DNA of 32,000 bases from Sinorhizobium meliloti (GTDB lineage Bacteria > Pseudomonadota > Alphaproteobacteria > Rhizobiales > Rhizobiaceae), in contig NZ_JAGIOS010000004.1 of NCBI RefSeq assembly GCF_017876815.1, positions 180,001 to 212,000 on the forward strand, in the 5' to 3' direction. The translations under genes were made by a program, and so were the position numbers. The notes beneath the pieces are model-generated. The model had not been told where the DNA came from. It searched no databases and worked only from the letters and a program-made list of their open reading frames with translations. Shown here piece after piece: positions 5,358 through 32,000 of the stretch (its first letter is position 1; each line of letters opens with the position of its first letter).

Positions 5358-5404
5358 AATTGCCTCATGACGGGTTTATGCATGAATGTGGCCATCACGA
5401 AGCG

Positions 5405-11336: not shown

Positions 11337-12872
11337 TCACTCTCTGGTGAGGAAGGCGACTTTTTCCAAGACCAGCAGACTTCGATCGAACAAATGCTTC
11401 ATGCCTCGTTCGCCTGCGTTGATCGCTTCCACAATCAGGCGTGCACTAAGGCAAAGCCGCAACGCGGCAACCTGGACGCCCTCAAGCTCGCCGCAAGGAA
11501 CCGGTTGTCCAACTTCGCAACGAACTGACAACATTGAGTCACCGGGCGTCTTGGCTTTCACGGTCGAATCCTGGCACAAATGATCGTAGATCCTCTTGGT
11601 CTGCGGGACAGCCACCGGATTTCTCCCCGCACGTCGACATACGTGAAACAGTATAAAAGGAAAAATTGTCGGTAGTTCGTCCCAAGAATTGTGAGTGACG
11701 GGCAGATGGCGTTGTAAGGTCGGTTGCTCTAACAGCTGAAAATTAGGCGCATTGTTCAGCCAGGAGGTAACCTCCTTATGAAAGTCAAACACGACGCTTT
11801 GGACATCTTCCTCTGAAACACTACGGAAAGCACGCAACTCCACGAGCGCAGCTTCCCACCGCAAAAGTAAACCAAAATTACTGGCTTCCGGGAGTGACTG
11901 AGCGCCTGCCCAATTTCGTGGCCAGTCTGCCCGGCAAGACTTCGCTCCTGGTATAGGGTGTAGTGGCCGTTTCTTCAAACGGCACGCCAGCGACTCAGGA
12001 ACCAAGAGCATTGCCGAAAAGGCTGGACCTCCCAAAAACTTGGATCCAGTAACTATCACCAAGCAGCCGATGGTAAGGTAGGTTTGCAGCGTCTTCGGTG
12101 CCAATCGAAATTGAGATGCATCGATGAGAATTTCAACACTATCGCGCCAGCGACGCTTCAAATCCAGCGCCTTGCTCGGAGTTGGAGCCAGTACGCCGGT
12201 TTTCGAAACGTCAGTCAACACAATCAAAATACGACTGTACCGCGTTATCGCAGCCGATACTATTGCCTCAAGCTCATCATCGACGGCCGCAATGGGGCGG
12301 AGACGGGCACCTTCCATGCGAACTGCTATCGATCTAACATCAATTGGATCGGCTGGATTAACCCTTATTCCACCACTCTCGCGGTGCGGAGAATGCATAC
12401 CGCCAGCCAGAGCATGACCGATCCCACTCCCCGTCTCCTCCGATTGGACCATAATTGCCAATGTCTTTGCGACGGCGCTTCCTGCGACCAATTTGGAGGC
12501 GAGCATGTGAGCGTCGGTGCCAGAAGGGGAAACGATGAGTTCTAGCCCTTGAATATGCTCCAAACCGCATAAGCCAATGAATTCGGTGCGAAGTCTGTCG
12601 ATCTCTTCTAGATAAAGTTCTTCCGGTGCCCGTCCATGCAAGGTCTGCAATATCCTTTGGCGTAGTTTTTCCGCAGCTGAGAATCCGATGTCAGAAATCG
12701 TAGATGCGGTCGCGGAACCAAATGAGAATATTTCCCGGTCGGGAAGTGGTTTACGACCGTACTTATTTGTCATTTGACCAGCATCAAGTTCGATCCGCTC
12801 GTCACCCCCCAAGGTTAACAACTCAGCGGTCGAAGGAAGGTGAGTATTCAGGTGGGATAGCCGCTCTGTCAT
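11337..12872 (-). CDS. fold-type I PLP-dependent enzyme, aminotransferase class V / cysteine-desulfurase-like
   Basis: 511 aa with [11 protein letters not shown], then IDASQFRL, then [19 protein letters not shown]. The D..Q to Lys spacing (~26 residues) matches class V enzymes, and the Lys in GSKF is the presumed PLP lysine. Its ATG overlaps the NRPS stop (ATGA at 12869-12872). My hand count for 11641-11740 gives 45% GC. Confidence 0.55.
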
Positions 12873-15800
12873 TTGACATCCAGATTTCTGTTCGGGTGGG
12901 TAGTCGGCGAATTGTTTAAGGCTGCTGACAGTTGGCGCGCCAAGACCCGCCGGTTTTCCGGAACAGCCATCATCGTCACGTGATCGCCTGGAACGGGCAC
13001 AGCCTGGATAAACTCCGCGCCCAAAATTCGATCCCAGCCGCGCATTGGTGAACTTGCGTCCGGCCCTGCCGGAAGTCGCGCCCCTCGGCTAAAAGAGTGC
13101 TCCAGAGCATAAAATTGGTGCACGCTGACTGGCAGTGATGGCATCTCATACGAATGCACAGCTTGGTGAAATTGCGCGTATCTGATGGCGTCATAGTAGA
13201 GATCTGGTCTACCGACGACCGCACCGATTTGTCGCGCTTTCTCAAACAACTGCTCAACGGAACTCTGCCCGGCCGATTGGCGCAGCACCTCGAACCCCTC
13301 ATCACCCAGCGACTCCAGAGGTTCAAAGATCATTTGCAAAGCGATTTCTGTATCCGTCATCGCAGGCGACATCGCCGGGATTGGCACATCGATGAATGCC
13401 ATAAATGAAACCGTTTCTTCCAGATTGAGCAGGCGCTCGGCGAGCGCATACGCCAGTACAGCCCCAGAGGAATACCCGGCAAATCGATATGGTCCCCGTG
13501 GCTGCACTTTGCGTACTGCGTGCGCTACTTTTGTTGCAATCTCTTCAAGGCTTGCTCGACGAGCTTCCTCAAATGGCGGCCAAGGCAAAGCGTAGACATG
13601 GCAATCTATGTCCATCTCTCTGACTAAGCGGAACACATATGAGCAGTCGCCATAACCTGTCGGAACAAAGAAGACTGGCGCTTGCGACCCTATCGTGCGA
13701 ACCGGTAGCACACCGGGTGTATAATGGGATGAGTCCAACTCGATCTTCGGAGCGAGGTCTTTGAGGATCGGGGCATCAAAAATGCTGCTGGCGCTGACCT
13801 TCATCCCAAGGGCTAACGCTTGGGCGAGCACGCGCACCGCCAACAATGAGTGGCCGCCGAGTTCGAAGAAGTTGTCGTGGCGCCCGACCTGCTCGACGCC
13901 GAGAAGCTCGGCCCAGATCCCGGCCAGCAGCGTCTCGATCTCGCCCTGCGGCGCCTCGTAGGCCCGACGCGCATAGGCATCGTCGTCGGGGACCGGCAGC
14001 GCCTTGCGGTCGAGCTTGCCGTTCACCGTCAGCGGCAGTGCATCCAGCCGCACGAAGGCCGACGGCACCATGTAGTCCGGTAGCAGGCCACCCAGATGCG
14101 CCCGCAACGACGCAGCAAGCCCGGCGCCATCGGCTTCGGCCGACCCGTCCGTCGTCTTCGCAACCACATAGGCGACGAGCCGCTTGTCGCCCGCCGCATC
14201 CGCGTGCGCCACCACCGCGGCATCGCCGACAAGCTCATGCTCCAGCAGCCGGGCGGCGATCTCGCCCGGCTCGATGCGGAAGCCGCGGATCTTCACCTGG
14301 TCGTCATTGCGGCCCAGAAACTCGAGATTGCCGTCCGGCAGGTAGCGCGCCAGGTCGCCGCTCCGGTACATCCGGGCGCCGGCCTTGCCGCTGAACCGAT
14401 CCGCCAGGAACCGCTCCGCCGTCAGATCCGGACGGTTCAGGTAGCCGCGCGCCACCCCCGCCCCGCCGATATAAAGCTCACCAACCGCCCCAAACGGGAC
14501 GGGTGCGCCATGACCGTCAAGCACATAAAGCCGCGTGTTCGCAATCGGACGGCCGATCGGCACATACCGGTGAGGCGCCTCAATTCTCGTGTCGGTAAGA
14601 AAGGTGGTCGCCCAAATCGTAGTCTCCGTCGGACCATAAAGATTTCTGAGAGATTTTACCCTTCTGCCGAGGTTCGAGGCCAGTTCTGAAGGCAACGCTT
14701 CGCCGCCACACAACGCACTTAAATCGGGCGCACCCTCCCAGCCGGCGTCGAAGAGCATACGCCACGCCGCGGGGGTCGCCTGCATCACAGTTATCTTCTG
14801 ATGGGATAGATACCGCTGTAATCCAATAACACTGGTTCCGTGAGCAACAACGACGTTAGCTCCCACGGCCAGTGGCAGATAGAGTTCCAGCCCCGCAATG
14901 TCGAAAGAGATCGTCGTGATCGCGAGGAGTGAATCGCGCTCTGTGAGGCCCGATACATCTAAAAGAGCGCGTAGAACATTGAGAACACTTGCATGCTCGA
15001 CCATGACGCCCTTAGGCGTGCCGGTGGATCCCGATGTGTAGATGACATAGGCGAGATTGCGGGCTGTCAGGCCGAGGGCATGCGGGTCGGGATCGTCAGC
15101 GGACTGGTCGGCCCAAGCGGGCATGGCCGCATCGAGATCGACCGCGCTCAGATCGGCGATTGCCTCGGCGCCCAACGCCGCGCGGCCGGCGGCGTCGCAA
15201 AGCAGCAGCCGCGGGCCGGCATCGTCGAGCAACTGCCGCAGCCGTTCGCCGGGATAGGCCGGGTCGAGCGGCACATAGGCGCCGCCGGCCTTGAGGATCG
15301 CCAGCAGTCCCACCACCATCGCCGGGCTGCGCTCGACGCAGATCGCCACTGGCTGGTCCGGCCTCACCCCGAGCCCGATCAGATGATGGGCCAGCCGGTT
15401 GGCATCGGCATTGAGCGCGCCATAGGAGATCGACTGCTCTTCGAAGACCAGTGCGACCGCGTCGGGCACCCGGCGCACCTGCGCCTCGAACAGCGCATGC
15501 ACGCAAAGATCCGACGGATAGTCCGCTTCCGTCCGGTTCAACTCCTCCAGCAGGTAGCTGCGCTCCTCAGCCGGAAGAATGTCGAGCTCGCGCACCGGCC
15601 TATCGGGCGCTTGCTCCAGCGCGTCGACCAGTTGCTCGAGCGCCCGCTGCATATAGCCGCAGATCCGATCGGCGGAGATCGGTTCGACCGCATCCGCCGT
15701 GAGCCCCAGCTCCTGACCAAAATCATCCACCGACAATGTCAGCGGGTAGTTGGTCCGTTCCTCGTCCCCCAGCCATTCCATGCCGGACAGCACGTCGCTT

Positions 15801-18800
15801 GTTCCCTCGCCGGCCATGGCCGGCGTGTTGTGGCGATAGTTCAGCAGCGCACTGAACAGTGGCGCTGGTGCGGCAATATCGCTGCAGCGTTGCGCCAATG
15901 CCAGCGAGGCATGCTCGTGTGAGAGCAATTCGGCCAGACGGGCGTGGGCGATACGCACACTTTCCTCGACCCCGGTCTCATCCAGATCCAGCCGCAACGG
16001 CAAGGTATTCATGAACAAGCCCATGGCACGGTCGGCGCCGGCACCCGCATGCATGCGGCCGAACAGCACCGTGCCGAACACCACCTGCTCGCGCCCGCTG
16101 CTCAGCGCCACCACCTGGGCCCAGGCCAGATGGCAAAGGCTAGCCAGACTCACCCCCAGCCGCCGCGCCTGGTGGCGCAGCCGATCGTTGAGCGCCTGCG
16201 GCAGCATCCGCCGTGCCTCGCGGGATCCGCGGCCGTCGCCGTAGACCTCGCTCAGAGCGAACGGCAGGGTCGGCTCGTCGATGTCGGCCAGCATCTCCCG
16301 GAAGAACGCTTCATGCGCTTTGGCATCCATGCCAAGCCGCGCCTGCGCCACCAGGTTGCGGAACGGCTGCGGCGCTGCAAGCTCATGCGCGCGCCCCTGC
16401 AGCACGGCCCGGACCTCGGCATGCATCACTTCGGCCGTCGTATGATCGCCGATCAGATGGTGCTGCAACACCAAAAGCAGCCAGCGCCCACTGCCCGGTT
16501 CGCGCGCGATCACGAACCGCATCAGCGGCGCCCGGCCAAGGTCGAGACGGTACTGGCGCGGATCGAACCGCCGCCTGAGCTCATCGGCGCCGGAACCATC
16601 ACAGCCCTCCAGCTCGACCTCGAGCACATCCAAGGCCGCCTTGCGCCAGACAACCTGCGCCGGGCTCGACAGACCCTCCCAGACAAAGGCCGTGCGCAGA
16701 ATGTCGTGGCGGTCGACCACCTGTTGAACCGCAGCAAGGTAGCGATCGAGCACACCCCGCTCGGCAAAGGCCATCTGCGACATCAGGAGATAGGGGTCAC
16801 CCTGGGTTGCCAGCAAATGATGGAACAGAATGCCGTCCTGCAGCGGCGACAGGCCATAGATATCCTGGATATTGCCGACGCCGCCGGGCACCGTCGACAC
16901 GATCCGGTCGATCTCCGGTTGGGTAAGATCGATCAGCGGCAGCATCTGCGGCGTGATCGCCGTACTCTGTTCCGTGATCGGGTTGGCAGGCACCGCCACC
17001 TCCCGGTGGCTGCCAAGACTGGCGGCCAGATCGGCAAGCATCGGCTTTGCAAATACGGTGCGAACCTCGACCCCGAGCGACAGCCGCCGCAGACGCTCCA
17101 TCATTTGAACGGCCAACAATGAGTGGCCGCCGAGCTCGAAGAAGTTGTCGTGGCGCCCGACCTGCTCGACGCCGAGAAGCTCGGCCCAGATCCCGGCCAG
17201 CAGCGTCTCGATCTCGCCCTGCGGCGCCTCGTAGGCCCGACGCGCATAGGCATCGTCGTCGGGGACCGGCAGCGCCTTGCGGTCGAGCTTGCCGTTCACC
17301 GTCAGCGGCAGTGCATCCAGCCGCACGAAGGCCGACGGCACCATGTAGTCCGGTAGCAGGCCACCCAGATGCGCCCGCAACGACGCAGCAAGCCCGGCGC
17401 CATCGGCTTCGGCCGACCCGTCCGTCGTCTTCGCAACCACATAGGCGACGAGCCGCTTGTCGCCCGCCGCATCCGCGTGCGCCACCACCGCGGCATCGCC
17501 GACAAGCTCATGCTCCAGCAGCCGGGCGGCGATCTCGCCCGGCTCGATGCGGAAGCCGCGGATCTTCACCTGGTCGTCATTGCGGCCCAGAAACTCGAGA
17601 TTGCCGTCCGGCAGGTAGCGCGCCAGGTCGCCGCTCCGGTACATCCGGGCGCCGGCCTTGCCGCTGAACGGATCCGCCAGGAACCGCTCCGCCGTCAGAT
17701 CCGGACGGTTCAGGTAGCCGCGCGCCACCCCCGCCCCGCCGATATAAAGCTCACCAACCGCCCCAAACGGAACCGGCTGACCATGGCCGTCAAGCACATA
17801 AAGCCGCGTGTTCGCAATCGGACGGCCGATATGTGGCACAGCGTCACTGAAGAGCTGTCCCGACGTTGCCACCACAGTAACTTCCGTAGGACCATAGTTG
17901 TTTATTAACTTGAGAGGCGACGGTAGCCGGGAAGGCACACGCTGCAGACGATCACCGCCAATAAGCAAGTACTCCAACAAGGGAGTTACCAGCTCGCCTT
18001 CCAATGCCGTTGCAGCCAGCGGCGTGACTAAAAAGGCGGCGTCCAGTGGTTGATCACGCCACCATTGCAGGAGAAGCAGAGGATCTCCTGCTGCCGGTCT
18101 GGGTGGGAGCAGCAATGTGCTGCGATTGTATAATGCAGACCATAACTCCCAAGCGCTGGCATCGAATGCCACTCCAGCCGTGAGTGTGCAGCAGGTTTCT
18201 GGTTGCGGACAAAATGTTTGCACATGCCATGCTGTGAGATTGACCAGGCTTTGATGCTCGACCATGACGCCCTTAGGCGTGCCGGTGGATCCCGATGTGT
18301 AGATGACATAGGCGAGATTGCGGGCTGTCAGGCCGAGGGCATGCGGGTCGGGATCGTCAGCGGACTGGTCGGCCCAGGCGGGCATGGCCGTATCGAGATC
18401 GACCGCGCTCAGATCGGCGATTGCCTCGGCGCCCAACGCCGCGCGACCGGCGGCGTCGCAAAGCAGCAGCCGCGGGCCGGCATCGTCGAGCAACTGCCGC
18501 AGCCGTTCGCCGGGATAGGCCGGGTCGAGCGGCACATAGGCGCCGCCGGCCTTGAGGATCGCCAGCAGTCCCACCACCATCGCCGGGCTGCGCTCGACGC
18601 AGATCGCCACTGGCTGGTCCGGCCTCACCCCGAGCCCGATCAGATGATGGGCCAGCCGGTTGGCATCGGCATTGAGCGCGCCATAGGAGATCGACTGCTC
18701 TTCGAAGACCAGTGCGACCGCGTCGGGCACCCGGCGCACCTGCGCCTCGAACAGCGCATGCACGCAAAGATCCGACGGATAGTCCGCTTCCGTCCGGTTC

Positions 18801-21800: not shown

Positions 21801-24800
21801 GGGTCGAGCGGCACATAGGCGCCGCCGGCCTTGAGGATCGCCAGCAGTCCCACCACCATCGCCGGGCTGCGCTCGACGCAGATCGCCACTGGCTGGTCCG
21901 GCCTCACCCCGAGCCCGATCAGATGATGGGCCAGCCGGTTGGCATCGGCATTGAGCGCGCCATAGGAGATCGACTGCTCTTCGAAGACCAGTGCGACCGC
22001 GTCGGGCACCCGGCGCACCTGCGCCTCGAACAGCGCATGCACGCAAAGATCCGACGGATAGTCCGCTTCCGTCCGGTTCAACTCCTCCAGCAGGTAGCTG
22101 CGCTCGTCGGGAGGCAGGATGTCCAGCTCGGACACCGGCTGCTCGGCATCGGCAAGCATCGCCCGCAGCAGCGCCAGCAGATAACCACATTGCCGCTCGA
22201 TCGTCGCCCGGTCGAACAACGCCGTCGCATAACCGAGAGTCCCGGCGATGGCCTCGCCCTGCTCTCCCAGGTTCAGTTCCAGATCGAACTTGACCTGATC
22301 GAGCCCCTCGCCCGCAGCCTCCACCTGCAGCCCCGGCAGGTCCAATGACCCGCCGGTGTTGTTCTGCCAGGCCAGTCCCACCTGGAACAACGGCGTGTGA
22401 CCGAGAGCCCGGGGCGGCTGGACGATCTCCACCACCTGCTCGAACGGCAGGTCCTGATGATCCTGCGCAGTCAAGGCCGCGCGCCGCGCCCGTTCCAGGA
22501 GATCGGACACGCTCGGCTCGCCCGACAGATCGATTCGAACCGCCAGGGTGTTGACGAAGAAACCGATTAGATCCTCGATCTCGCGGCGACGACGATTGGC
22601 CGTCGGCACACCGATCACGATATCGTCCTGCCCGGACAGGCGCGACAGCACCGCAGCCCAGGCCGCCAGCACTGTCATGAACAACGTCGTGCCATGCTGC
22701 CGGCTCAGCCGCTTGAGCCCGCGCGTCAGAGCCTCATCGATGATAACCGGCACGCTGGCTCCGGCAAACGACTGCTGTGCCGGCCGCGGCCGGTCCGTCG
22801 GCAGCGCCAGACGGGCCGGGGCGCCAGACAGGGTGTCGCGCCAATACTGCGCCTGACGCTGCAGCCGCTCGCCGGACAACCATTGCCGTTGCCAGGCGGC
22901 ATAATCCGGATACTGGATCGCCAGCGGCGGCAAAGGATCGTCCTCTCCAGCCTCAAACGCGCGGTAAAGGCTGCTGAGCTCGCGCACCAGCACCCCCATC
23001 GACCAGCCGTCCGAGACTATGTGATGCTGCGTCAGCAGAAAGACGTGCTCCTCATCCGCCAGCCGGATCAGCCGGCCGCGGATCAGCGGCTCGCGCGCCA
23101 GATCGAACGGCGTGCGCGCCTCTTCTTGGCACAGATCCAAAAGCGCGGCTTGCGCATCCGGCCTGTCCCGCAGATCGTGCTCGACCACCGGCAATCCCCT
23201 GTCCCCGGACAAAATCTGGACCTGCGGGTCATCCTCTCCGGCGACGAACGTGCAGCGCAGCGCCTCGTGACGGGCAAACAGGCGGTCAAGGCTGCGCCGC
23301 CAGGCGACACGGTCGAGTCTGCCCTGCAGTCGCCACCCCAGGGGAATGTTATAGTTCGTGCTGTCTTCGTCCAACTGTGCCAAGAACCAGAGACGCTGCT
23401 GCGAATAGGACAGCGGAAGCGCACCATCACGTCCGACTGGCATGATGACCGGTGCTGTCTGCGCACCAGAACCGTTCAGCACTTCGCCAACACTTAGCGC
23501 CAAATCGGCCAATGTTGGCTTGGCGAACAGGATCGCCAGCGGCAGCTCCACTGCCAAGGCCTCGGTCAGCCGGACGAGCACGCGCACCGCCAACAATGAG
23601 TGGCCGCCGAGCTCGAAGAAGTTGTCGTGGCGCCCGACCTGCTCGACGCCGAGAAGCTCGGCCCAGATCCCGGCCAGCAGCGTCTCGATCTCGCCCTGCG
23701 GCGCCTCGTAGGCCCGACGCGCATAGGCATCGTCGTCGGGGACCGGCAGCGCCTTGCGGTCGAGCTTGCCGTTCACCGTCAGCGGCAGTGCATCCAGCCG
23801 CACGAAGGCCGACGGCACCATGTAGTCCGGTAGCAGGCCACCCAGATGCGCCCGCAACGACGCAGCAAGCCCGGCGCCATCGGCTTCGGCCGACCCGTCC
23901 GTCGTCTTCGCAACCACATAGGCGACGAGCCGCTTGTCGCCCGCCGCATCCGCGTGCGCCACCACCGCGGCATCGCCGACAAGCTCATGCTCCAGCAGCC
24001 GGGCGGCGATCTCGCCCGGCTCGATGCGGAAGCCGCGGATCTTCACCTGGTCGTCATTGCGGCCCAGAAACTCGAGATTGCCGTCCGGCAGGTAGCGCGC
24101 CAGGTCGCCGCTCCGGTACATCCGGGCGCCGGCCTTGCCGCTGAACGGATCCGCCAGGAACCGCTCCGCCGTCAGATCCGGACGGTTCAGGTAGCCGCGC
24201 GCCACCCCCGCCCCGCCGATATAAAGCTCACCAACCGCCCCAAACGGAACCGGCTGACCATGGCCGTCAAGCACATAAAGCCGCGTGTTCGCAATCGGAC
24301 GGCCGATCGGCACATTCGTCGATGCGGAAAGATCTGCAGGGATGTCATGGAAAGCACAACCGACAACCGCTTCCGTCGGGCCATACTCGTTGACCATTCT
24401 AGCCGCCGGCTGGATCTGACGCCATAGCTCGACCGTCGAAGACGACAATGCCTCACCGCCAATGACGAGCACCTCCACCTGACTGGCATCTCCAGCCGAC
24501 TGCAGTTGCTGTCCAAGAACATCCAGATGGCTCGGGGTGATTTTGACCAGGCTGCGGCCTAAGCCAAGCTCTACCTTAAGGTTTTCGGTTTCATTTCGGT
24601 TGGATATGAGATGTTCCTGCGCACCACAGATTAGAGGCGCGAACAGGCTGGTAATCGTGGCATCGAAGGCGAGCGAAGAGGAGACGACGGATGAGGATAT
24701 GGGAGCGTAGCTCTCACGAGCCCAGCTTAGATAATTGGTCATCCCGCGATGCTCGACCATGACGCCCTTAGGCGTGCCGGTGGATCCCGATGTGTAGATG

Positions 24801-27800
24801 ACATAGGCGAGATTGCGGGCTGTCAGGCCGAGGGCATGCGGGTCGGGATCGTCAGCGGACTGGTCGGCCCAGGCGGGCATGGCTGCATCGAGATCGACCG
24901 CGCTCAGATCGTCGATTGCCTCGGCGCCCAACGCCGCGCGGCCGGCGGCGTCGCAAAGCAGCAGCCGCGGGCCGGCATCGTCGAGCAACTGCCGCAGCCG
25001 TTCGCCGGGATAGGCCGGGTCGAGCGGCACATAGGCGCCGCCGGCCTTGAGGATCGCCAGCAGTCCCACCACCATCGCCGGGCTGCGCTCGACGCAGATC
25101 GCCACTGGCTGGTCCGGCCTCACCCCGAGCCCGATCAGATGATGGGCCAGCCGGTTGGCATCGGCATTGAGCGCGCCATAGGAGATCGACTGCTCTTCGA
25201 AGACCAGTGCGACCGCGTCGGGCACCCGGCGCACCTGCGCCTCGAACAGCGCATGCACGCAAAGATCCGACGGATAGTCCGCTTCCGTCCGGTTCAACTC
25301 CTCCAGCAGGTAGCTGCGCTCGTCGGGAGGCAGGATGTCCAGCTCGGACACCGGCTGCTCGGCATCGGCAAGCATCGCCCGCAGCAGCGCCAGCAGATAA
25401 CCACATTGCCGCTCGATCGTCGCCCGGTCGAACAACGCCGTCGCATAACCGAGAGTCCCGGCGATGGCCTCGCCCTGCTCTCCCAGGTTCAGTTCCAGAT
25501 CGAACTTGACCTGATCGAGCCCCTCGCCCGCAGCCTCCACCTGCAGCCCCGGCAGGTCCAATGACCCGCCGGTGTTGTTCTGCCAGGCCAGTCCCACCTG
25601 GAACAACGGCGTGTGACCGAGAGCCCGGGGCGGCTGGACGATCTCCACCACCTGCTCGAACGGCAGGTCCTGATGATCCTGCGCAGTCAAGGCCGCGCGC
25701 CGCGCCCGTTCCAGGAGATCGGACACGCTCGGCTCGCCCGACAGATCGATTCGAACCGCCAGGGTGTTGACGAAGAAACCGATTAGATCCTCGATCTCGC
25801 GGCGACGACGATTGGCCGTCGGCACACCGATCACGATATCGTCCTGCCCGGACAGGCGCGACAGCACCGCAGCCCAGGCCGCCAGCACTGTCATGAACAA
25901 CGTCGTGCCATGCTGCCGGCTCAGCCGCTTGAGCCCGCGCGTCAGAGCCTCATCGATGATAACCGGCACGCTGGCTCCGGCAAACGACTGCTGTGCCGGC
26001 CGCGGCCGGTCCGTCGGCAGCGCCAGACGGGCCGGGGCGCCAGACAGGGTGTCGCGCCAATACTGCGCCTGACGCTGCAGCCGCTCGCCGGACAACCATT
26101 GCCGTTGCCAGGCGGCATAATCCGGATACTGGATCGCCAGCGGCGGCAAAGGATCGTCCTCTCCAGCCTCAAACGCGCGGTAAAGGCTGCTGAGCTCGCG
26201 CACCAGCACCCCCATCGACCAGCCGTCCGAGACTATGTGATGCTGCGTCAGCAGAAAGACGTGCTCCTCATCCGCCAGCCGGATCAGCCGGCCGCGGATC
26301 AGCGGCTCGCGCGCCAGATCGAACGGCGTGCGCGCCTCTTCTTGGCACAGATCCAAAAGCGCGGCTTGCGCATCCGGCCTGTCCCGCAGATCGTGCTCGA
26401 CCACCGGCAATCCCCTGTCCCCGGACAAAATCTGGACCTGCGGGTCATCCTCTCCGGCGACGAACGTGCAGCGCAGCGCCTCGTGACGGGCAAACAGGCG
26501 GTCAAGGCTGCGCCGCCAGGCGACACGGTCGAGTCTGCCCTGCAGTCGCCACCCCAGGGGAATGTTATAGTTCGTGCTGTCTTCGTCCAACTGTGCCAAG
26601 AACCAGAGACGCTGCTGCGAATAGGACAGCGGAAGCGCACCATCACGTCCGACTGGCATGATGACCGGTGCTGTCTGCGCACCAGAACCGTTCAGCACTT
26701 CGCCAACACTTAGCGCCAAATCGGCCAATGTTGGCTTGGCGAACAGGATCGCCAGCGGCAGCTCCACTGCCAAGGCCTCGGTCAGCCGGACGAGCACGCG
26801 CACCGCCAACAATGAGTGGCCGCCGAGCTCGAAGAAGTTGTCGTGGCGCCCGACCTGCTCGACGCCGAGAAGCTCGGCCCAGATCCCGGCCAGCAGCGTC
26901 TCGATCTCGCCCTGCGGCGCCTCGTAGGCCCGACGCGCATAGGCATCGTCGTCGGGGACCGGCAGCGCCTTGCGATCGAGCTTGCCGTTCACCGTCAGCG
27001 GCAGTGCATCCAGCCGCACGAAGGCCGACGGCACCATGTAGTCCGGTAGCAGGCCACCCAGATGCGCCCGCAACGACGCAGCAAGCCCGGCGCCATCGGC
27101 TTCGGCCGACCCGTCCGTCGTCTTCGCAACCACATAGGCGACGAGCCGCTTGTCGCCCGCCGCATCCGCGTGCGCCACCACCGCGGCATCGCCGACAAGC
27201 TCATGCTCCAGCAGCCGGGCGGCGATCTCGCCCGGCTCGATGCGGAAGCCGCGGATCTTCACCTGGTCGTCATTGCGGCCCAGAAACTCGAGATTGCCGT
27301 CCGGCAGGTAGCGCGCCAGGTCGCCGCTCCGGTACATCCGGGCGCCGGCCTTGCCGCTGAACGGATCCGCCAGGAACCGCTCCGCCGTCAGATCCGGACG
27401 GTTCAGGTAGCCGCGCGCCACCCCCGCCCCGCCGATATAAAGCTCACCAACCGCCCCAAACGGAACCGGCTGACCATGGCCGTCCAGCAGATAGATCCGC
27501 GTGTTCGAGATCGGACGCCCGATCGTTTCGACAACAGCCTGTCCCCTCGGCATGCAAATCCAAGTCGAGTACGTCGTTGTCTCCGAAGGGGCGTACAGAT
27601 TGCAAATCTTCTGGACGCGCGTGCTCTCGAATATCCTCTCGATTAGGTCTGCCTTCACCCGCTCGCCCGCCAAATTGATGACGCTTGCCGATGCCGGCAC
27701 GGCTTTCTGGTTGACCAGAGCGGTGATCGCCGAGGGGACCGTGTTGATCAAGGAGGCATCCACGGGCGTTCGGGCCAGCTTCAGTGCATCCTCGACGAGG

Positions 27801-30800
27801 TACAGCTTGCTTCCCTGCGAAAGCGGAAGGAAACACTCGTAAACGGACAGATCAAAACAGACCGAGGTCGAGAACAGCGTGCGCCTGATCTCTGATTCGG
27901 CAAACACGCCGCCACTCCAATGCAGCAGGTTCACTGTGTTCCGATGCTCGACCATGACGCCCTTAGGCGTGCCGGTGGATCCCGATGTGTAGATGACATA
28001 GGCGAGATTGCGGGCTGTCAGGCCGAGGGCATGCGGGTCGGGATCGTCAGCGGACTGGTCGGCCCAGGCGGGCATGGCCGTATCGAGATCGACCGCGCTC
28101 AGATCGGCGATTGCCTCGGCGCCCAACGCCGCGCGACCGGCGGCGTCGCAAAGCAGCAGCCGCGGGCCGGCATCGTCGAGCAACTGCCGCAGCCGTTCGC
28201 CGGGATAGGCCGGGTCGAGCGGCACATAGGCGCCGCCGGCCTTGAGGATCGCCAGCAGTCCCACCACCATCGCCGGGCTGCGCTCGACGCAGATCGCCAC
28301 TGGCTGGTCCGGCCTCACCCCGAGCCCGATCAGATGATGGGCCAGCCGGTTGGCATCGGCATTGAGCGCGCCATAGGAGATCGACTGCTCTTCGAAGACC
28401 AGTGCGACCGCGTCGGGCACCCGGCGCACCTGCGCCTCGAACAGCGCATGCACGCAAAGATCCGACGGATAGTCCGCTTCCGTCCGGTTCAACTCCTCCA
28501 GCAGGTAGCTGCGCTCGTCGGGAGGCAGGATGTCCAGCTCGGACACCGGCTGCTCGGCATCGGCAAGCATCGCCCGCAGCAGCGCCAGCAGATAACCACA
28601 TTGCCGCTCGATCGTCGCCCGGTCGAACAACGCCGTCGCATAACCGAGAGTCCCGGCGATGGCCTCGCCCTGCTCTCCCAGGTTCAGTTCCAGATCGAAC
28701 TTGACCTGATCGAGCCCCTCGCCCGCAGCCTCCACCTGCAGCCCCGGCAGGTCCAATGACCCGCCGGTGTTGTTCTGCCAGGCCAGTCCCACCTGGAACA
28801 ACGGCGTGTGACCGAGAGCCCGGGGCGGCTGGACGATCTCCACCACCTGCTCGAACGGCAGGTCCTGATGATCCTGCGCAGTCAAGGCCGCGCGCCGCGC
28901 CCGTTCCAGGAGATCGGACACGCTCGGCTCGCCCGACAGATCGATTCGAACCGCCAGGGTGTTGACGAAGAAACCGATTAGATCCTCGATCTCGCGGCGA
29001 CGACGATTGGCCGTCGGCACACCGATCACGATATCGTCCTGCCCGGACAGGCGCGACAGCACCGCAGCCCAGGCCGCCAGCACTGTCATGAACAACGTCG
29101 TGCCATGCTGCCGGCTCAGCCGCTTGAGCCCGCGCGTCAGAGCCTCATCGATGATAACCGGCACGCTGGCTCCGGCAAACGACTGCTGTGCCGGCCGCGG
29201 CCGGTCCGTCGGCAGCGCCAGACGGGCCGGGGCGCCAGACAGGGTGTCGCGCCAATACTGCGCCTGACGCTGCAGCCGCTCGCCGGACAACCATTGCCGT
29301 TGCCAGGCGGCATAATCCGGATACTGGATCGCCAGCGGCGGCAAAGGATCGTCCTCTCCAGCCTCAAACGCGCGGTAAAGGCTGCTGAGCTCGCGCACCA
29401 GCACCCCCATCGACCAGCCGTCCGAGACTATGTGATGCTGCGTCAGCAGAAAGACGTGCTCCTCATCCGCCAGCCGGATCAGCCGGCCGCGGATCAGCGG
29501 CTCGCGCGCCAGATCGAACGGCGTGCGCGCCTCTTCTTGGCACAGATCCAAAAGCGCGGCTTGCGCATCCGGCCTGTCCCGCAGATCGTGCTCGACCACC
29601 GGCAATCCCCTGTCCCCGGACAAAATCTGGACCTGCGGGTCATCCTCTCCGGCGACGAACGTGCAGCGCAGCGCCTCGTGACGGGCAAACAGGCGGTCAA
29701 GGCTGCGCCGCCAGGCGACACGGTCGAGTCTGCCCTGCAGTCGCCACCCCAGGGGAATGTTATAGTTCGTGCTGTCTTCGTCCAACTGTGCCAAGAACCA
29801 GAGACGCTGCTGCGAATAGGACAGCGGAAGCGCACCATCACGTCCGACTGGCATGATGACCGGTGCTGTCTGCGCACCAGAACCGTTCAGCACTTCGCCA
29901 ACACTTAGCGCCAAATCGGCCAATGTTGGCTTGGCGAACAGGATCGCCAGCGGCAGCTCCACTGCCAAGGCCTCGGTCAGCCGGACGAGCACGCGCACCG
30001 CCAACAATGAGTGGCCGCCGAGCTCGAAGAAGTTGTCGTGGCGCCCGACCTGCTCGACGCCGAGAAGCTCGGCCCAGATCCCGGCCAGCAGCGTCTCGAT
30101 CTCGCCCTGCGGCGCCTCGTAGGCCCGACGCGCATAGGCATCGTCGTCGGGGACCGGCAGCGCCTTGCGGTCGAGCTTGCCGTTCACCGTCAGCGGCAGT
30201 GCATCCAGCCGCACGAAGGCCGACGGCACCATGTAGTCCGGTAGCAGGCCACCCAGATGCGCCCGCAACGACGCAGCAAGCCCGGCGCCATCGGCTTCGG
30301 CCGACCCGTCCGTCGTCTTCGCAACCACATAGGCGACGAGCCGCTTGTCGCCCGCCGCATCCGCGTGCGCCACCACCGCGGCATCGCCGACAAGCTCATG
30401 CTCCAGCAGCCGGGCGGCGATCTCGCCCGGCTCGATGCGGAAGCCGCGGATCTTCACCTGGTCGTCATTGCGGCCCAGAAACTCGAGATTGCCGTCCGGC
30501 AGGTAGCGCGCCAGGTCGCCGCTCCGGTACATCCGGGCGCCGGCCTTGCCGCTGAACGGATCCGCCAGGAACCGCTCCGCCGTCAGATCCGGACGGTTCA
30601 GGTAGCCGCGCGCCACCCCCGCCCCGCCGATATAAAGCTCACCAACCGCCCCAAACGGAACCGGCTGACCATGACCGTCCAGAAGATAGATCCGAAGATC
30701 CGGAATCCGTTCGCCGATCGGACCGCATGAGCTGGACGTATCAGACTTGTTAAGAAGCCGATAGGTCACATGCACAGTCGTCTCTGTGATGCCGTACATG

Positions 30801-32000
30801 TTGATCAGCCGTGGGGCATGCTCACAATGCCGTTCGAACCACGGCTTAAGAGAGGAAGGCTCCAGGGCCTCGCCTCCAAAAATCAAATAGCGAAGCTGGT
30901 TGCGAACTCCACTCTCACGCTCGGCTTCGATCAGAGCTTTAAACGCCGAGGGCGTCTGGTTGAGCACCGTGGCGCTTGACTTGCAAACCAGCGTATAAAA
31001 GTCGGGAGCAGAGCGAGCTATATGCTCCGGTACGAGAACCAGACGGCCACCACAGTGGAGCGCTCCCCACAACTCCCAAACCGAGAAGTCGAATGAGAAA
31101 GAATGAAACAGGCACCAGACATCGCGCTCGTTGAAATCGTACCAGCTCCGCGTCGCCTCAAACAAACGGACAATTTGCGCATGCTCGACCATGACGCCCT
31201 TAGGCGTGCCGGTGGATCCCGATGTGTAGATGACATAGGCGAGATTGCGGGCTGTCAGGCCGAGGGCATGCGGGTCGGGATCGTCAGCGGACTGGTCGGC
31301 CCAGGCGGGCGTGGCCGCATCGAGATCGACCGCGCTCAGATCGTCGATTGCCTCGGCGCCCAACGCCGCGCGGCCGGCGGCGTCGCAAAGCAGCAGCCGC
31401 GGGCCGGCATCGTCGAGCAACTGCCGCAGCCGTTCGCCGGGATAGGCCGGGTCGAGCGGCACATAGGCGCCGCCGGCCTTGAGGATCGCCAGCAGTCCCA
31501 CCACCATCGCCGGGCTGCGCTCGACGCAGATCGCCACTGGCTGGTCCGGCCTCACCCCGAGCCCGATCAGATGATGGGCCAGCCGGTTGGCATCGGCATT
31601 GAGCGCGCCATAGGAGATCGACTGCTCTTCGAAGACCAGTGCGACCGCGTCGGGCACCCGGCGCACCTGCGCCTCGAACAGCGCATGCACGCAAAGATCC
31701 GACGGATAGTCCGCTTCCGTCCGGTTCAACTCCTCCAGCAGGTAGCTGCGCTCGTCGGGAGGCAGGATGTCCAGCTCGGACACCGGCTGCTCGGCATCGG
31801 CAAGCATCGCCCGCAGCAGCGCCAGCAGATAACCACATTGCCGCTCGATCGTCGCCCGGTCGAACAACGCCGTCGCATAACCGAGAGTCCCGGCGATGGC
31901 CTCGCCCTGCTCTCCCAGGTTCAGTTCCAGATCGAACTTGACCTGATCGAGCCCCTCGCCCGCAGCCTCCACCTGCAGCCCCGGCAGGTCCAATGACCCG
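12869..32000 (-). CDS. non-ribosomal peptide synthetase, 3' portion (>=6374 codons): ...C-A-T-C-A-T-C-A-T-C-A-T-C'-A-T-C'-A-T-TE; 5' end outside the window
   Basis: A single uninterrupted reading frame runs to the right window edge. The track 'M' at 31993 is an internal TTG Leu of the repeated ...[10 protein letters not shown]... motif, and the frame stays open through 32000. It contains six copies of the A-domain cores ([21 protein letters not shown], Nx[67 protein letters not shown]) and six [12 protein letters not shown] carrier motifs. It also has three complete [11 protein letters not shown] domains plus one partial, two HHLIGDH C domains, and a terminal GYSSG thioesterase. Confidence 0.97.
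12872..13700 (-). other. NRPS thioesterase (TE) domain (approximate bounds)
   Basis: [17 protein letters not shown]; the GxSxG nucleophile elbow [10 protein letters not shown] is encoded at ~13451-13479; a C-terminal [10 protein letters not shown] supplies the His. My hand count for 13141-13240 gives 51% GC, unlike the ~70% GC scaffold. Confidence 0.85.
13995..15564 (-). other. A domain 6 (last module), predicted Gly (approximate bounds)
   Basis: Code extracted by alignment to GrsA positions: [11 protein letters not shown] / MQATPAA / ALCGGEA / [13 protein letters not shown] / NGKLDRK gives DILQLGLIWK, identical to the classical Gly code. The unique cassette is ~14568-14992. Confidence 0.75.
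15574..16874 (-). other. C' domain (non-canonical His motif HHLIGDH; candidate dual epimerisation/condensation), copy 2
   Basis: N-terminal [26 protein letters not shown], with HHLLATQGD encoded at 16797-16823. The active-site [14 protein letters not shown] has HHLIGDH at 16442-16462. It is preceded by the variant carrier [23 protein letters not shown] and the linker [26 protein letters not shown]. Confidence 0.6.
17268..18825 (-). other. A domain 5, predicted Leu-like hydrophobic residue (approximate bounds)
   Basis: [11 protein letters not shown] / FLVTPLA / LLIGGDR / [13 protein letters not shown] gives DAWLLGNVVK, one position from the classical Leu code DAWFLGNVVK. The unique cassette is ~17831-18253. 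Confidence 0.6.
18835..20135 (-). other. C' domain (HHLIGDH type; candidate dual E/C), copy 1
   Basis: Same sequence as 15574-16874 shifted by 3261 bp, with HHLLATQGD at 20058-20084 and HHLIGDH at 19703-19723. Only two amino-acid differences are visible (WLGDEE vs WLGGEE, ALEQAP vs ALERAP). Confidence 0.6.
20529..22104 (-). other. A domain 4, unassigned specificity code DANNVGEVGK (approximate bounds)
   Basis: [11 protein letters not shown] / VNVTPSH / LVIGGEA / [13 protein letters not shown] gives DANNVGEVGK. It is identical to A domain 3 except for the 39-codon patch at 21325-21440, which changes code positions 239 and 278. Confidence 0.6.
22125..23420 (-). other. canonical C domain ([10 protein letters not shown]), copy 3 of 3 complete copies
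   Basis: [17 protein letters not shown] is encoded at ~23388-23420 and [14 protein letters not shown] at ~22995-23035. Copies at +3216 and +6411 bp give identical translations. Confidence 0.85.
23745..25320 (-). other. A domain 3, predicted Asn (approximate bounds)
   Basis: [11 protein letters not shown] / VKITPSH / LVIGGEA / [13 protein letters not shown] gives DATKVGEVGK, identical to the classical Asn code. Confidence 0.75.
25341..26636 (-). other. canonical C domain ([10 protein letters not shown]), copy 2
   Basis: Same translation as 22125-23420, shifted by 3216 bp. Confidence 0.85.
26961..28515 (-). other. A domain 2, predicted small residue (Ala-like), tentative
   Basis: VCFDLSVYE / INTVPSA / INLAGER / [13 protein letters not shown] gives DLYNNALTYK. 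The closest code I remember is DLFNNALTYK (Ala). The unique cassette is ~27485-27943. Confidence 0.45.
28536..29831 (-). other. canonical C domain ([10 protein letters not shown]), copy 1
   Basis: Same translation as 22125-23420, shifted by 6411 bp. Confidence 0.85.
30156..31752 (-). other. A domain 1 (first in window), predicted Thr
   Basis: FSFDFSVWE / LNQTPSAF / LIFGGEA / [13 protein letters not shown] gives DFWNIGMVHK, identical to the classical Thr code. The unique cassette is ~30672-31180. Confidence 0.75.
31773..32000 (-). other. C-terminal tail of a fourth canonical C domain (truncated by window edge)
   Basis: ...[60 protein letters not shown] matches the tails of the three complete canonical C domains. 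Confidence 0.8.

Follow-up and report, generated by a model that had tools for sequence, protein, structure and literature searches.

The window, a 32,000-nt stretch of a Sinorhizobium meliloti contig, contains the final six modules of a nonribosomal peptide synthetase (NRPS) with 16 modules and an N-formyl start, which is carried on a conjugative Sinorhizobium accessory plasmid. The NRPS gene occupies positions 12869..32000 on the minus strand as a single open frame of 6376 codons, intact over 19 kb; its 5' end is cut at the window edge, so that the 3' 19.1 kb, comprising six A-T modules and the terminal thioesterase, is present. Domains were assigned by Pfam (AMP-binding, AMP-binding_C, PP-binding, Thioesterase and Condensation), and the C domains are of the LCL type before modules 2-4 and of the dual C/E type (HHLIGDH) before modules 5-6. 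The window NRPS gene is 99.8% identical to CP140885.1 (S. meliloti ml46 plasmid pMl1), in which two NRPS genes (11063 aa and 6778 aa) together hold 16 modules built on one scaffold, and the window gene corresponds to the second. The features of the window are as follows.

8021..8764, minus strand: Sfp/HetI-type 4'-phosphopantetheinyl transferase; GC3 0.669
8761..9582, minus strand: SagB-family/nitroreductase-fold dehydrogenase; GC3 0.668
9841..10590, minus strand: 249-aa hypothetical gene, part of the cluster; GC 0.508, GC3 0.500
11337..12872, minus strand: conserved hypothetical gene of 511 aa, its start and the NRPS stop overlapping by 4 nt; GC 0.524, GC3 0.520
12872..13834, minus strand: end of the last T domain and thioesterase (TE, by Pfam), single copy; GC 0.551, GC3 0.570
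13835..14557, minus strand: scaffold, A-domain C-terminal part (A6-A10) and T domain of module 6; GC 0.689, GC3 0.834
14558..14992, minus strand: cassette 6, 'SVLNVLR' family with a Gly-like code, present 4 times in the full synthetase; GC 0.554, GC3 0.572
14993..17830, minus strand: scaffold, A_N of module 6, dual C/E domain, A_C and T of module 5, paralogues 99-100% identical; GC3 0.79-0.83
17831..18253, minus strand: cassette 5, Leu-like code family, single copy; GC 0.548, GC3 0.518
18254..21091, minus strand: scaffold, A_N of module 5, dual C/E domain, A_C and T of module 4
21092..21532, minus strand: cassette 4, family 'GMTNYLS', 4-copy variant; GC 0.590, GC3 0.653
21323-21439, minus strand: nested variable core of cassette 4; GC3 0.74
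21533..24307, minus strand: scaffold, A_N of module 4, LCL C domain, A_C and T of module 3
24308..24748, minus strand: cassette 3, single-copy variant of the 'GMTNYLS' family, with an Asn-like code; GC 0.560, GC3 0.605
24539-24655, minus strand: nested 39-codon variable core of cassette 3; GC3 0.56
24749..27523, minus strand: scaffold, A_N of module 3, LCL C domain, A_C and T of module 2
27524..27943, minus strand: cassette 2, 'TVNLLH' family (the most abundant one), present 4 times in the full synthetase; GC 0.576, GC3 0.743
27944..30718, minus strand: scaffold, A_N of module 2, LCL C domain, A_C and T of module 1
30719..31180, minus strand: cassette 1, 'QIVRLFE' family with a Thr-like code, without a second copy in the gene; GC 0.550, GC3 0.630
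31181..32000, minus strand: scaffold, A_N of module 1 plus the final part of the C domain before it, truncated at the window edge

The gene at 11337..12872 accompanies the cluster in Sinorhizobium and Rhizobium. An earlier note on this DNA had called it a PLP gene, a label without support, as the product has no Pfam or NCBIfam match.

Outside the specificity cassettes the six modules of the window are 99-100% identical at the DNA level, and all 16 modules of the full synthetase are 97-100% identical. Each A domain carries one cassette of 140-154 codons, which begins after motif A3, ends before A6 and includes the A4/A5 pocket residues. The cassette edges are sharp, a single 60-nt window at either end taking inter-module identity from 100% down to ~30%, and the cassettes differ from one another by 65-75% at the protein level. 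Cassettes 3 and 4, described previously as a single shared cassette, are indeed otherwise identical, but their 39-codon core is only 54% identical. Scaffold identity is 97.6-99.6% inside one gene versus 79-96% between genera, the classic signature of concerted evolution, and strains with identical flanks differ in module number and order (S. medicae ml42 has 3 modules and S. meliloti ml46 has 16). The modules are thus kept alike by concerted evolution, through gene conversion and unequal crossing-over between modules. The segments that have no recombination partner, namely the A-domain cassettes, the terminal thioesterase and the N-terminal formyltransferase (F) domain, all stay distinct. We regard this structural description, a concertedly evolving scaffold with protected A-core cassettes, as practically certain.

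Base composition was measured on an exact segmentation of the coding (minus) strand. Scaffold over the six modules has a GC of 0.66-0.69 and a GC3 of 0.78-0.85, and the six cassettes have a GC of 0.548-0.590 and a GC3 of 0.518-0.743. Within the scaffold, GC is 0.68 (GC3 0.81-0.83) for the A-domain N-terminal part, 0.69 (GC3 0.83-0.85) for the A-domain C-terminal part plus T, and 0.656 (GC3 0.78-0.79) for the C domains; apart from the two downstream genes at 11337-12872 and 9841-10590 (GC3 0.52 and 0.50), flanking genes have a GC3 of 0.63-0.67, and unassigned overlapping ORFs at 5351-6166 have 0.64/0.77. In 100-nt tiles, mean GC is 0.564 inside cassettes (n=22) and 0.674 in scaffold (n=147; Mann-Whitney p=1.6e-12), with the qualification that the scaffold tiles are repeated copies and therefore not independent. 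Cassettes and scaffold are equal in GC2 (0.45-0.50), differ in GC1 (0.53-0.63 versus 0.73-0.78) and differ most in GC3, while the residues G, A, R and P make up 26% of cassettes versus 37-40% of scaffold; the contrast is therefore mainly synonymous with an added amino-acid shift. Ten of the eleven 100-nt hand counts on which the mosaic was originally proposed were reproduced exactly and the other was off by 1%, and the proposed rule, that repeated DNA is GC-rich and unique DNA GC-poorer, holds without exception in the window and likewise in eight further related clusters. The GC mosaic coincides exactly with the division of the DNA into segments that recombine among copies and segments that do not.

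GC3 is graded with copy number. When seven rhizobial clusters are pooled and an 'other copy' is counted at ≥95% identity, GC3 is 0.58 for segments with no other copy, 0.71 for 1, 0.78 for 2-3, 0.81 for 4-6, 0.83 for 7-10 and 0.83 for ≥11. A test that is fairer than the tiles, given their non-independence, takes the complete gene pair as 13 distinct classes of segment and gives a Spearman rho of 0.89 (p=4e-5) between copy number and GC3; across nine cassette families mean copy number and mean GC3 give rho 0.86 (p=0.003). The nested core repeats the pattern, at 0.74 in the 4-copy variant (cassette 4) versus 0.56 in the single-copy variant (cassette 3). Inside a single cassette family, GC3 does not track how many copies each cluster has (rho 0.16, p=0.33). 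Among other synthetases, repeated versus unique GC3 is 0.835 versus 0.69 in Methylocystis bryophila NRPS2, 0.815 versus 0.70 in the Methylosinus OB3b NRPS and 0.65 versus 0.47 in the Paenibacillus polymyxa pSb31l NRPS; in a Methylocystis array in which the cassette itself is repeated, the cassette is GC-rich (0.84), and in the mycolactone PKS of pMUM001 the values with rising copy number are 0.56, 0.62, 0.70, 0.74 and 0.78. No copy-number effect was found in a Caballeronia synthetase with two-copy repeats or in a Ralstonia synthetase with a GC3 already about 0.9.

The same scaffold is found in nine homologous clusters on plasmids of Sinorhizobium, Rhizobium, Mesorhizobium and Bradyrhizobium, with a mean GC3 of 0.79-0.86 per cluster, along with nine common cassette families with a GC3 of 0.46-0.78. 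Third-position identities of cassette and scaffold correlate (r=0.73, 97 cluster pairs), and the cassettes mostly co-diverge with the scaffold. The mosaic is therefore old and family-wide rather than newly imported into this plasmid. Two of the three histories offered in the earlier note, the sweep of a high-GC module and the import of low-GC cassettes, thus fail as recent events on this plasmid, given the same mosaic, scaffold and cassette families in four genera and the comparable divergence of cassette and scaffold; one such event in the family ancestor is compatible with an ancestral scaffold inferred to have been richer still in GC (root GC3 0.89), from which GC is now being lost. Outside the family, the scaffold is closest over its full length to Ralstonia NRPSs, which are GC-rich (GC3 about 0.9) and 68% identical to it in DNA. 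The earlier note had named shared nearest relatives of cassettes and scaffold as evidence against the mosaic. In the single family tested, that of the Leu-like cassette, cassette and scaffold do have the same nearest outside relatives, Burkholderiales NRPSs, which argues against cassettes from a very different lineage.

A maximum-likelihood non-stationary third-position fit gives an equilibrium GC3 of 0.68 (0.62-0.75) for scaffold, 0.50 (0.45-0.60) for low-copy cassette families and 0.85 (0.75-0.90) for two high-copy cassette families, estimates that rest on 139-153 sites per cassette family, a two-state model and a search over root positions. The scaffold, with most copies of all, thus has a lower fitted equilibrium than the high-copy cassettes, so that the ranking with copy number is not monotonic at the level of process. 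Stationarity of the scaffold is rejected (p=3e-7; present GC3 0.82). Third-position variants in a minority of copies comprise 171 S->W and 21 W->S changes, with an implied mutational equilibrium of about 0.38, versus 152 to 38 among fixed differences between clusters, so that W->S changes are over-represented among fixations. In four of five lineages, polarised terminal-branch changes number 101 S->W to 14 W->S, above the ratio of roughly 2:1 that this method yields at equilibrium. Conversion therefore does not at present maintain a GC3 of 0.82, and part of the contrast must have been inherited. The derived-allele copy-frequency test was weak at third positions (Mann-Whitney p=0.13) and had no signal over all positions.

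We tentatively favor the view that the contrast may arise mainly from a GC-favoring fixation bias tied to inter-copy recombination, either GC-biased gene conversion or an equivalent. A strongly AT-biased mutational input would be partly offset by this bias, and because of the offset equilibrium GC3 would climb with the number of copies of a segment; the starting scaffold would have been GC-rich already in the family ancestor and would now be slowly losing GC. Biased conversion, the third history of the earlier note, has the most support of the three, from the copy-number trend, the independent repeats and a scaffold equilibrium above that of low-copy cassettes, and is held back by the weak allele-frequency test and a scaffold that is not at equilibrium. 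Since 'more copies, more GC' recurs in unrelated synthetases, such genes may be a natural test bed for bacterial GC-biased gene conversion.

The serious rival, which we consider possible though rather unlikely, is an ancient chimera undergoing slow amelioration, in which a GC-rich, Burkholderiales-like module was duplicated or swept through an older synthetase in the rhizobial family ancestor, the cassettes, TE, F domain and accessory genes came from, or were long resident in, GC-poorer DNA, and the contrast is a fading historical mark in which recombination has no compositional role. The ancestral scaffold GC3 of 0.89 with GC falling in all Rhizobiaceae/Mesorhizobium lineages, the Ralstonia relatives of the scaffold and the differences in GC1 and amino-acid make-up, which are slow to accumulate, are all as expected of such a chimera. 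So are the lack of a within-family copy-number effect, a family-specific GC3 that is steady across genera ('TVNLLH' 0.68-0.78, Leu-like 0.52-0.58, family 7 0.46-0.48), and single-copy cluster genes adjoining TE that are GC-poorer even than the plasmid background. A chimera does not, however, predict the graded relation across cassette families and segment classes, nor a like relation in the unrelated synthetases of Paenibacillus, Methylocystaceae and Mycobacterium. The cassette native to the scaffold module should be GC-rich and decaying, yet the best candidate, 'TVNLLH', is estimated to be rising from about 0.62; low-copy cassettes have an equilibrium of their own, about 0.5-0.6, and do not converge on the scaffold, and the Leu-like cassette and scaffold have the same nearest outside relatives.

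Causality might also run in reverse, with GC-rich DNA forming stabler heteroduplexes and recombining more readily, so that only GC-rich stretches are homogenised while GC-poorer ones escape and diverge. This would likewise yield a GC3-copy-number correlation in several unrelated synthetases, and a yeast study reports recombination rates raised by higher GC (PMC6064992), but we consider it improbable: cassette boundaries fall at the limits of functional units (the A3-A6 specificity region, TE and F domain), which together with the 65-75% protein difference points to selection on substrate choice rather than poor recombination as the source of cassette distinctness, and the initial excess of the repeated module over local background GC is left unexplained. 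That the specificity subdomain is intrinsically GC-poorer through amino-acid requirements or codon constraints would fit the lower GC1 and the fewer G/A/R/P residues of cassettes, but is very unlikely, being already contradicted by non-repeated homologous synthetases, a comparison that the earlier note had proposed. In four such relatives the cassette-equivalent region matches its flanks in GC and GC3, without a dip (GC3 0.76 versus 0.75/0.76 in Mycetohabitans, 0.92-0.94 versus 0.93/0.96 in Eleftheria, 0.91-0.96 versus 0.87-0.93 in Ralstonia and 0.67 versus 0.70/0.71 in Methylocystis NRPS1), so that low GC is not intrinsic to the subdomain; moreover, the gap is largest at synonymous third positions, the repeated Methylocystis cassette is GC-rich (0.84), and TE, the F domain and neighboring genes are GC-poor as well. 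Least credible of all is an assembly artefact, in which near-identical modules result from repeat collapse or consensus polishing. Short-read assemblies do break at every module, leaving cassette homologues on orphan contigs of 0.4-0.7 kb, and gene lengths vary among draft contigs, but at least 10 independently finished plasmids from several laboratories have the same full-length architecture, scaffold and cassette divergence is coherent between genera, and the reading frame is unbroken across the 19 kb.

Several known systems resemble parts of this picture. GRINS (2021, PMC8256042) are also repeated stretches in assembly-line genes that are associated with gene conversion; the skew that defines them was not found in the Sinorhizobium NRPS, and that study, in which they are rare in Proteobacteria, does not treat GC content. 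Exchange of A-core subdomains is known both from the evolution of NRPSs and from their engineering (Baunach et al. 2021, PMC8097286; Booth et al. 2022, PMC9205934; also Crusemann et al. 2013 and Kries et al. 2015, cited therein). The rhizobial variable unit is likewise an internal piece of the A-core flanked by conserved motifs, and does not reach into the C-A linker, the A-sub domain or the A-sub/T interface. The exchanged region in PMC9205934, A2 to A5/A6, is nearly the same as the A3 to A6 region of the Sinorhizobium NRPS. The rhizobial unit differs in being fixed, sharply bounded and reused, with nine cassette families over 82 modules in nine clusters, and in adding a smaller nested 39-codon unit; a compositional contrast is not described in PMC8097286 or PMC9205934. 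Among concertedly evolving assembly lines, of which the syringopeptin NRPS and mycolactone PKS are the extreme cases (Medema et al. 2014, PMC4256081), domains likewise group by gene cluster rather than by position, modules are homogenised by internal recombination, and segments selected for different function escape. The Sinorhizobium NRPS stands at the extreme end of these systems, with 16 modules that are 97-100% identical and a scaffold common to four rhizobial genera. Medema et al. do not mention base composition, and the relation between GC3 and copy number, including that in the mycolactone PKS, is an addition of the present analysis. The bacterial hypothesis of GC-biased gene conversion (Lassalle et al. 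2015, PMC4450053; Weissman et al. 2019, PMC6867656) rests on genome-wide allelic correlations of recombination with GC, whereas recombination here is between paralogous modules inside one gene, and the directional tests are only partly positive. A likeness in composition exists to the mammalian evidence for GC-biased gene conversion from X-chromosome palindromes (PMC8981503), where intrachromosomal conversion is similarly reported to hold copies >99% identical and the converting DNA to be GC-richer than the adjoining unique DNA.

Near-identical module DNA, here called the scaffold, makes up most of a minus-strand gene that encodes six adenylation-thiolation (A-T) modules and a closing thioesterase. 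Pfam AMP-binding, AMP-binding_C, PP-binding and Thioesterase domains are found in the last module, the translated frame shows the core motifs, and Condensation domains are on record for the same gene in other strains. Condensation (C) domains of the LCL type (HHIVSDG) lie ahead of modules 2-4, and dual C/E-type domains (HHLIGDH) lie ahead of modules 5-6. The C, A, T order of each module, together with a terminal release domain, is that of a modular (type I) nonribosomal peptide synthetase (NRPS). A dedicated phosphopantetheinyl transferase for T-domain activation is usual, not obligatory, for such systems, and one of the Sfp/HetI type is encoded nearby.

Features of the synthetase gene and its neighbourhood
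12869-32000, minus strand: NRPS, a single open reading frame of 6376 codons, open at the window edge
11337-12872, minus strand: 511-residue protein with no family match, its start overlapping the NRPS stop codon by 4 nt
8761-9582, minus strand: SagB-family (nitroreductase-fold) peptide dehydrogenase, downstream of the NRPS gene
8021-8764, minus strand: HetI/Sfp-type phosphopantetheinyl transferase, downstream of the NRPS gene
6722-7936, minus strand: DDE_5 (IS701-like) transposase, between the cluster and an indolepyruvate oxidoreductase gene

At 99.8% identity the region matches pMl1, a conjugative accessory plasmid of S. meliloti ml46 (CP140885.1). There a pair of NRPS genes (11063 and 6778 residues), of which this gene is the second, jointly encodes 16 modules. 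The first of the pair, which lies upstream and outside the window, has a formyltransferase domain at its start (Pfam Formyl_trans_N, E=4e-13, at 34400-35170 of locus L008), and dual C/E domains follow modules 1-5, 8, 9, 14 and 15 of the full synthetase. The formyltransferase domain and the dual C/E positions predict a 16-residue product that is N-formylated and has many D-residues. In the synthetase itself no cyclisation domain turned up.

Running downstream from the thioesterase, the genes encode the 511-residue protein, a small ParB-like protein, a 249-residue hypothetical protein, the SagB-family dehydrogenase and the phosphopantetheinyl transferase, beyond which lie the transposase and then unrelated metabolic genes. 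The 511-residue protein has no match in Pfam or NCBIfam, so the label of "PLP gene" that the earlier note gave it is unsupported. Its conservation is at least 90% across S. meliloti, S. medicae, R. leguminosarum and R. mongolense, and the gene invariably adjoins the synthetase. At the position of the DDE_5 transposase, pMl1 of ml46 carries an IS66 element instead; the window is therefore from a close relative of ml46 and not from ml46 itself, and the cluster edge is a site of insertion-sequence turnover. The flanking proteins have exact matches in S. meliloti and S. medicae. The transposase and the oxidoreductase gene flank two overlapping open reading frames on opposite strands (246 and 253 residues, 5351-6166), which have no Pfam match and sit in a local GC peak (0.687 at 5701-6000).

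The modules are 99-100% identical in DNA apart from one stretch each, and this unique stretch, the cassette, is sharply bounded. Its start is six residues past the A3 P-loop (GVMVEH) and its end, ahead of A6, is at IGRPI; outside it the modules are identical, A7-A10 and the T domain included. The exchanged piece thus lies inside the A-core between conserved motifs and does not touch the C-A linker, A-sub or the A-sub/T interface, as in an A-core subdomain exchange unit. It contains the A4 (FDxS) and A5 (NxYGPTE) motifs with their associated pocket positions, which differ between cassette families. Going by pocket specificity codes, cassettes 1-6 would select Thr, possibly Ala, Asn, an Asn-like residue, Leu and Gly, which would tentatively be the last six residues of the product. 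Only nine cassette families account for 82 modules in nine homologous clusters from four rhizobial genera, with protein identity of 25-35% between families and 61-96% inside a family across genera. The earlier note had described modules 3 and 4 as sharing one cassette. The two are indeed identical outside a 39-codon core (24539-24655 in cassette 3 and 21323-21439 in cassette 4), but the core itself is just 54% identical in DNA, so they are not one cassette; the core is a nested, smaller exchange unit that spans pocket position 239 and the region around 278. Its four-copy variant has a GC content at third codon positions (GC3) of 0.74, versus 0.56 for the single-copy variant.

Base composition follows the same boundaries. 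Recomputation of the eleven 100-nt GC counts in the earlier note reproduced ten exactly and the other to within 1%, and the contrast between scaffold and cassettes that it had drawn from them stands when GC and GC3 are calculated by segment.

Base composition of the window by segment
Scaffold pieces: GC 0.66-0.69, GC3 0.78-0.85
Six cassettes: GC 0.55-0.59, GC3 0.52-0.74
Thioesterase: GC 0.55, GC3 0.57
Two cluster genes adjoining the thioesterase: GC 0.51-0.52, GC3 0.50-0.52
Remaining flank: GC 0.58-0.60, GC3 0.63-0.67

Cassette and scaffold are equal at second codon positions, differ at first positions and differ most at third positions, so most of the contrast is synonymous and a change in amino-acid composition is secondary. 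It is common to all nine clusters, in which scaffold mean GC3 is 0.79-0.86 and cassette averages are 0.59-0.67, and each cassette family holds its own GC3 level across genera. Because the mosaic is family-wide and the cassettes co-diverge with the scaffold, the sweep of a scaffold or import of cassettes that had been offered as its history is rejected as a recent event on this plasmid. The earlier note had counted shared nearest relatives of cassettes and scaffold against its reading; for the Leu-like cassette (cassette 5), the one family compared, the nearest outside relatives of both proved to be Burkholderiales NRPSs. An intrinsically low GC content of the specificity subdomain is likewise rejected, since the cassette-equivalent region shows no dip in non-repeated relatives: in the NRPSs of Mycetohabitans, Eleftheria and Ralstonia and in Methylocystis NRPS1, its GC3 equals that of its flanks. 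In a Methylocystis array the cassette is itself repeated, and there it is GC-rich.

Third-position composition is graded by repetition. When the other copies that a segment has in its synthetase are counted at ≥95% identity and the data are pooled over seven rhizobial clusters, GC3 climbs monotonically with copy number (0.58, 0.71, 0.78, 0.81, 0.83, 0.83). Mean copy number and mean GC3 are correlated across the nine cassette families (rho 0.86), as are copy number and GC3 across the 13 distinct segment classes of this synthetase (rho 0.89); inside cassette families, copy number gives no signal. A rise of silent-site GC with recombination or copy number, as expected of GC-biased gene conversion (gBGC), is therefore present at these levels. 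Similar differences are seen in synthetases of other bacteria.

GC3 of repeated and unique DNA in other assembly lines
Methylocystis bryophila NRPS2: repeated 0.835, unique 0.69
Methylosinus OB3b NRPS: repeated 0.815, unique 0.70
Paenibacillus polymyxa plasmid NRPS (pSb31l): repeated 0.65, unique 0.47
Mycolactone PKS, pMUM001: 0.62, 0.70, 0.74 and 0.78 by rising copy number, unique 0.56

No effect of copy number was found in Caballeronia, where the repeats are two-copy, or in Ralstonia, whose GC3 of about 0.9 is near the ceiling already, and a Brevibacillus locus has no internal repeats and is hence uninformative. This sample is a handful of systems picked opportunistically, in which repeated copies are non-independent data points, and a general relation across synthetases is a lead and not a result. 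Relative to the plasmid background, repeated DNA lies above it in pSb31l and in the Methylocystis plasmid; in pMUM001 the background level is that of the repeated DNA, and unique PKS segments are lower.

Substitutions and alleles were used to examine conversion bias. When changes on the scaffold's terminal branches were polarised, four lineages together had 101 from G/C to A/T (S→W) and 14 from A/T to G/C (W→S), and Bradyrhizobium had 51 and 24. In simulation, parsimony polarisation alone yields an S→W:W→S ratio of about 2 at equilibrium, so the S→W excess in the four lineages is real; a plain parsimony reading of pure scaffold decay was set aside, because the procedure itself is skewed about 2:1, and a likelihood fit was used instead. 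The two-state non-stationary fit gave the scaffold a root GC3 of 0.89, a present value of 0.82 and an equilibrium of 0.68, with stationarity rejected, and the unique parts were apparently stationary near 0.6. The fitted equilibrium of the low-copy cassette families, 0.50, is below both the 0.68 of the scaffold and the 0.85 of the high-copy families, but the scaffold is non-stationary, intervals for single families are wide and the profiles of the fit are noisy.

Variants carried by a minority of copies comprise 171 S→W and 21 W→S changes at third positions, which puts the mutational equilibrium near 0.38 and so well under any fixed composition. Fixed differences number 152 S→W and 38 W→S by parsimony counts, an over-share of W→S in the direction predicted by gBGC, though the contrast is modest. 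At third positions the mean copy frequency of derived alleles is 0.37 for W→S versus 0.29 for S→W (p=0.13, a weak signal), and derived alleles present in more than 50% of copies are 7 of 21 versus 23 of 171 (p=0.027); over all positions the two classes do not differ in frequency. The scaffold was also compared with the GRINS definition (PMC8256042), which calls for more than 500 bp at more than 80% identity to another region, with mean absolute GC and TA skews above 0.15 in 150-nt windows. Its identity lies within that definition, its mean absolute skews are 0.10 (GC) and 0.12-0.14 (TA), and the assignment was rejected, as no 500-nt stretch exceeds both skew thresholds.

We tentatively attribute the contrast, at not quite even chances, to a GC-favouring fixation bias that would be tied to recombination between copies and would act on an ancestrally GC-rich scaffold. 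The inherited component is included because terminal branches are dominated by S→W changes and the non-stationary fit places the root at high GC3. A process tied to repetition is included because of the rise of GC3 with copy number and its rank correlations, the nested core, the fitted equilibria and the low mutational equilibrium. Conversion bias in its simple form is opposed by the lack of a copy-number effect within families, by the weak skew in allele frequency and by a scaffold that is off equilibrium. The same off-equilibrium scaffold, descending from a GC-rich root, is what an ancient chimera that is slowly ameliorating would look like, and this is the main rival; set against the evidence for a process tied to repetition, we consider it rather unlikely. 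Reverse causality between composition and repetition, the third reading, would bear on the same copy-number relation, and we regard it as improbable. More widely, inter-module recombination in bacterial megasynthases could be GC-biased, with silent-site GC graded by intragenic copy number, a claim that we hold as possible and somewhat doubtful.

Copies of the A-domain scaffold are 97.6-99.6% identical within a gene versus 79-96% between genera, the pattern of a concertedly evolving assembly line; a degraded cluster of Rhizobium sp. T1473 departs from this, with 90.6% within the gene. We regard as secure that the synthetase gene consists of a concertedly evolving scaffold and protected A-core specificity cassettes. 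Recombination between modules is continuing, in that even close relatives among strains with the same flanks differ in cassette order and in module number (3, 9-10 or more, and 16, where some draft cases may be assembly breaks): the 3 modules of S. medicae ml42 are in one gene of 11.2 kb, in WSM419 there are two genes, each of about 26.7 kb, and S. meliloti ml46 has genes of 33.2 and 20.3 kb with 16 modules. The Leu-like module is missing from some drafts, and there too an assembly break may be the reason in some cases.

Homologous synthetases are found on plasmids of Rhizobium leguminosarum, R. jaguaris, other Rhizobium, Mesorhizobium mediterraneum, Bradyrhizobium barranii and B. septentrionale, and a cassette fragment is found in Paraburkholderia too. 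PLSDB contains about 90 members of the family. The scaffold tree is discordant with the host tree, the scaffold of R. leguminosarum Vaf10 being nearest to that of Mesorhizobium (90%) and that of R. leguminosarum ATCC 14479 nearest to that of Sinorhizobium (95%); clusters therefore evidently travel between genera on plasmids. Across 97 cluster pairs, third-position identity of cassette and scaffold is correlated (r=0.73) with a few outliers, and synonymous divergence of cassettes between genera is scaffold-like in several families and larger in others. The clearest outlier is the Leu-like cassette (17831-18253 versus module 3 of the Mesorhizobium cluster), with a third-position identity of 0.89 and dS of 0.17, versus 0.69 and 0.47 for the Sinorhizobium and Mesorhizobium scaffolds, which suggests transfer of a cassette between diverged scaffolds.

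The same architecture occurs in many finished plasmids, and an assembly artefact is accordingly rejected. Short-read assemblies of Mesorhizobium, Rhizobium, Bradyrhizobium, Sinorhizobium and Paraburkholderia carry cassette homologues alone on contigs of 0.4-0.7 kb; beyond these five genera, the matches to a cassette, all of them short pieces on tiny contigs, extended to Mycetohabitans, Serratia and Pseudomonas. Because the repeats break assembly at every module, the family is probably badly under-counted and mis-annotated in draft genomes. As a practical warning, short-read assembly shatters these genes and leaves each cassette on its own small contig.

Whether biased gene conversion or selection sets bacterial GC content has long been disputed, mostly from genome-wide correlations. 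If recombination between megasynthase modules is indeed GC-biased, homogenised NRPS and PKS genes are natural experiments, in which repeated and unique DNA share gene, replicon, expression level and host, and conversion bias becomes separable from selection and mutation, at which genome-wide bacterial correlations have failed. Should the graded relation be conversion bias, these genes would allow that debate to be tested by experiment with internal controls. For natural-product work, one universal scaffold that has a fixed, sharp site (A3 to A6) for specificity cassettes, and takes nine or more of them across 82 natural modules, is a field-tested blueprint for subdomain swapping, and the compositional step is a cheap genome-mining cue to exchange-unit boundaries in other homogenised synthetases.

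In the papers searched, we found no description of this rhizobial NRPS family, of the assembly or of the plasmid accession, and no paper joining biased gene conversion to concerted evolution of NRPS or PKS genes; base composition is not discussed in PMC4256081, PMC8097286, PMC9205934 or the GRINS paper (PMC8256042). The rhizobial synthetase shares features with known systems on two counts: its cassettes are A-core exchange units of the kind already known (PMC8097286, PMC9205934), and the concerted evolution of its modules is that already known for assembly lines (PMC4256081).
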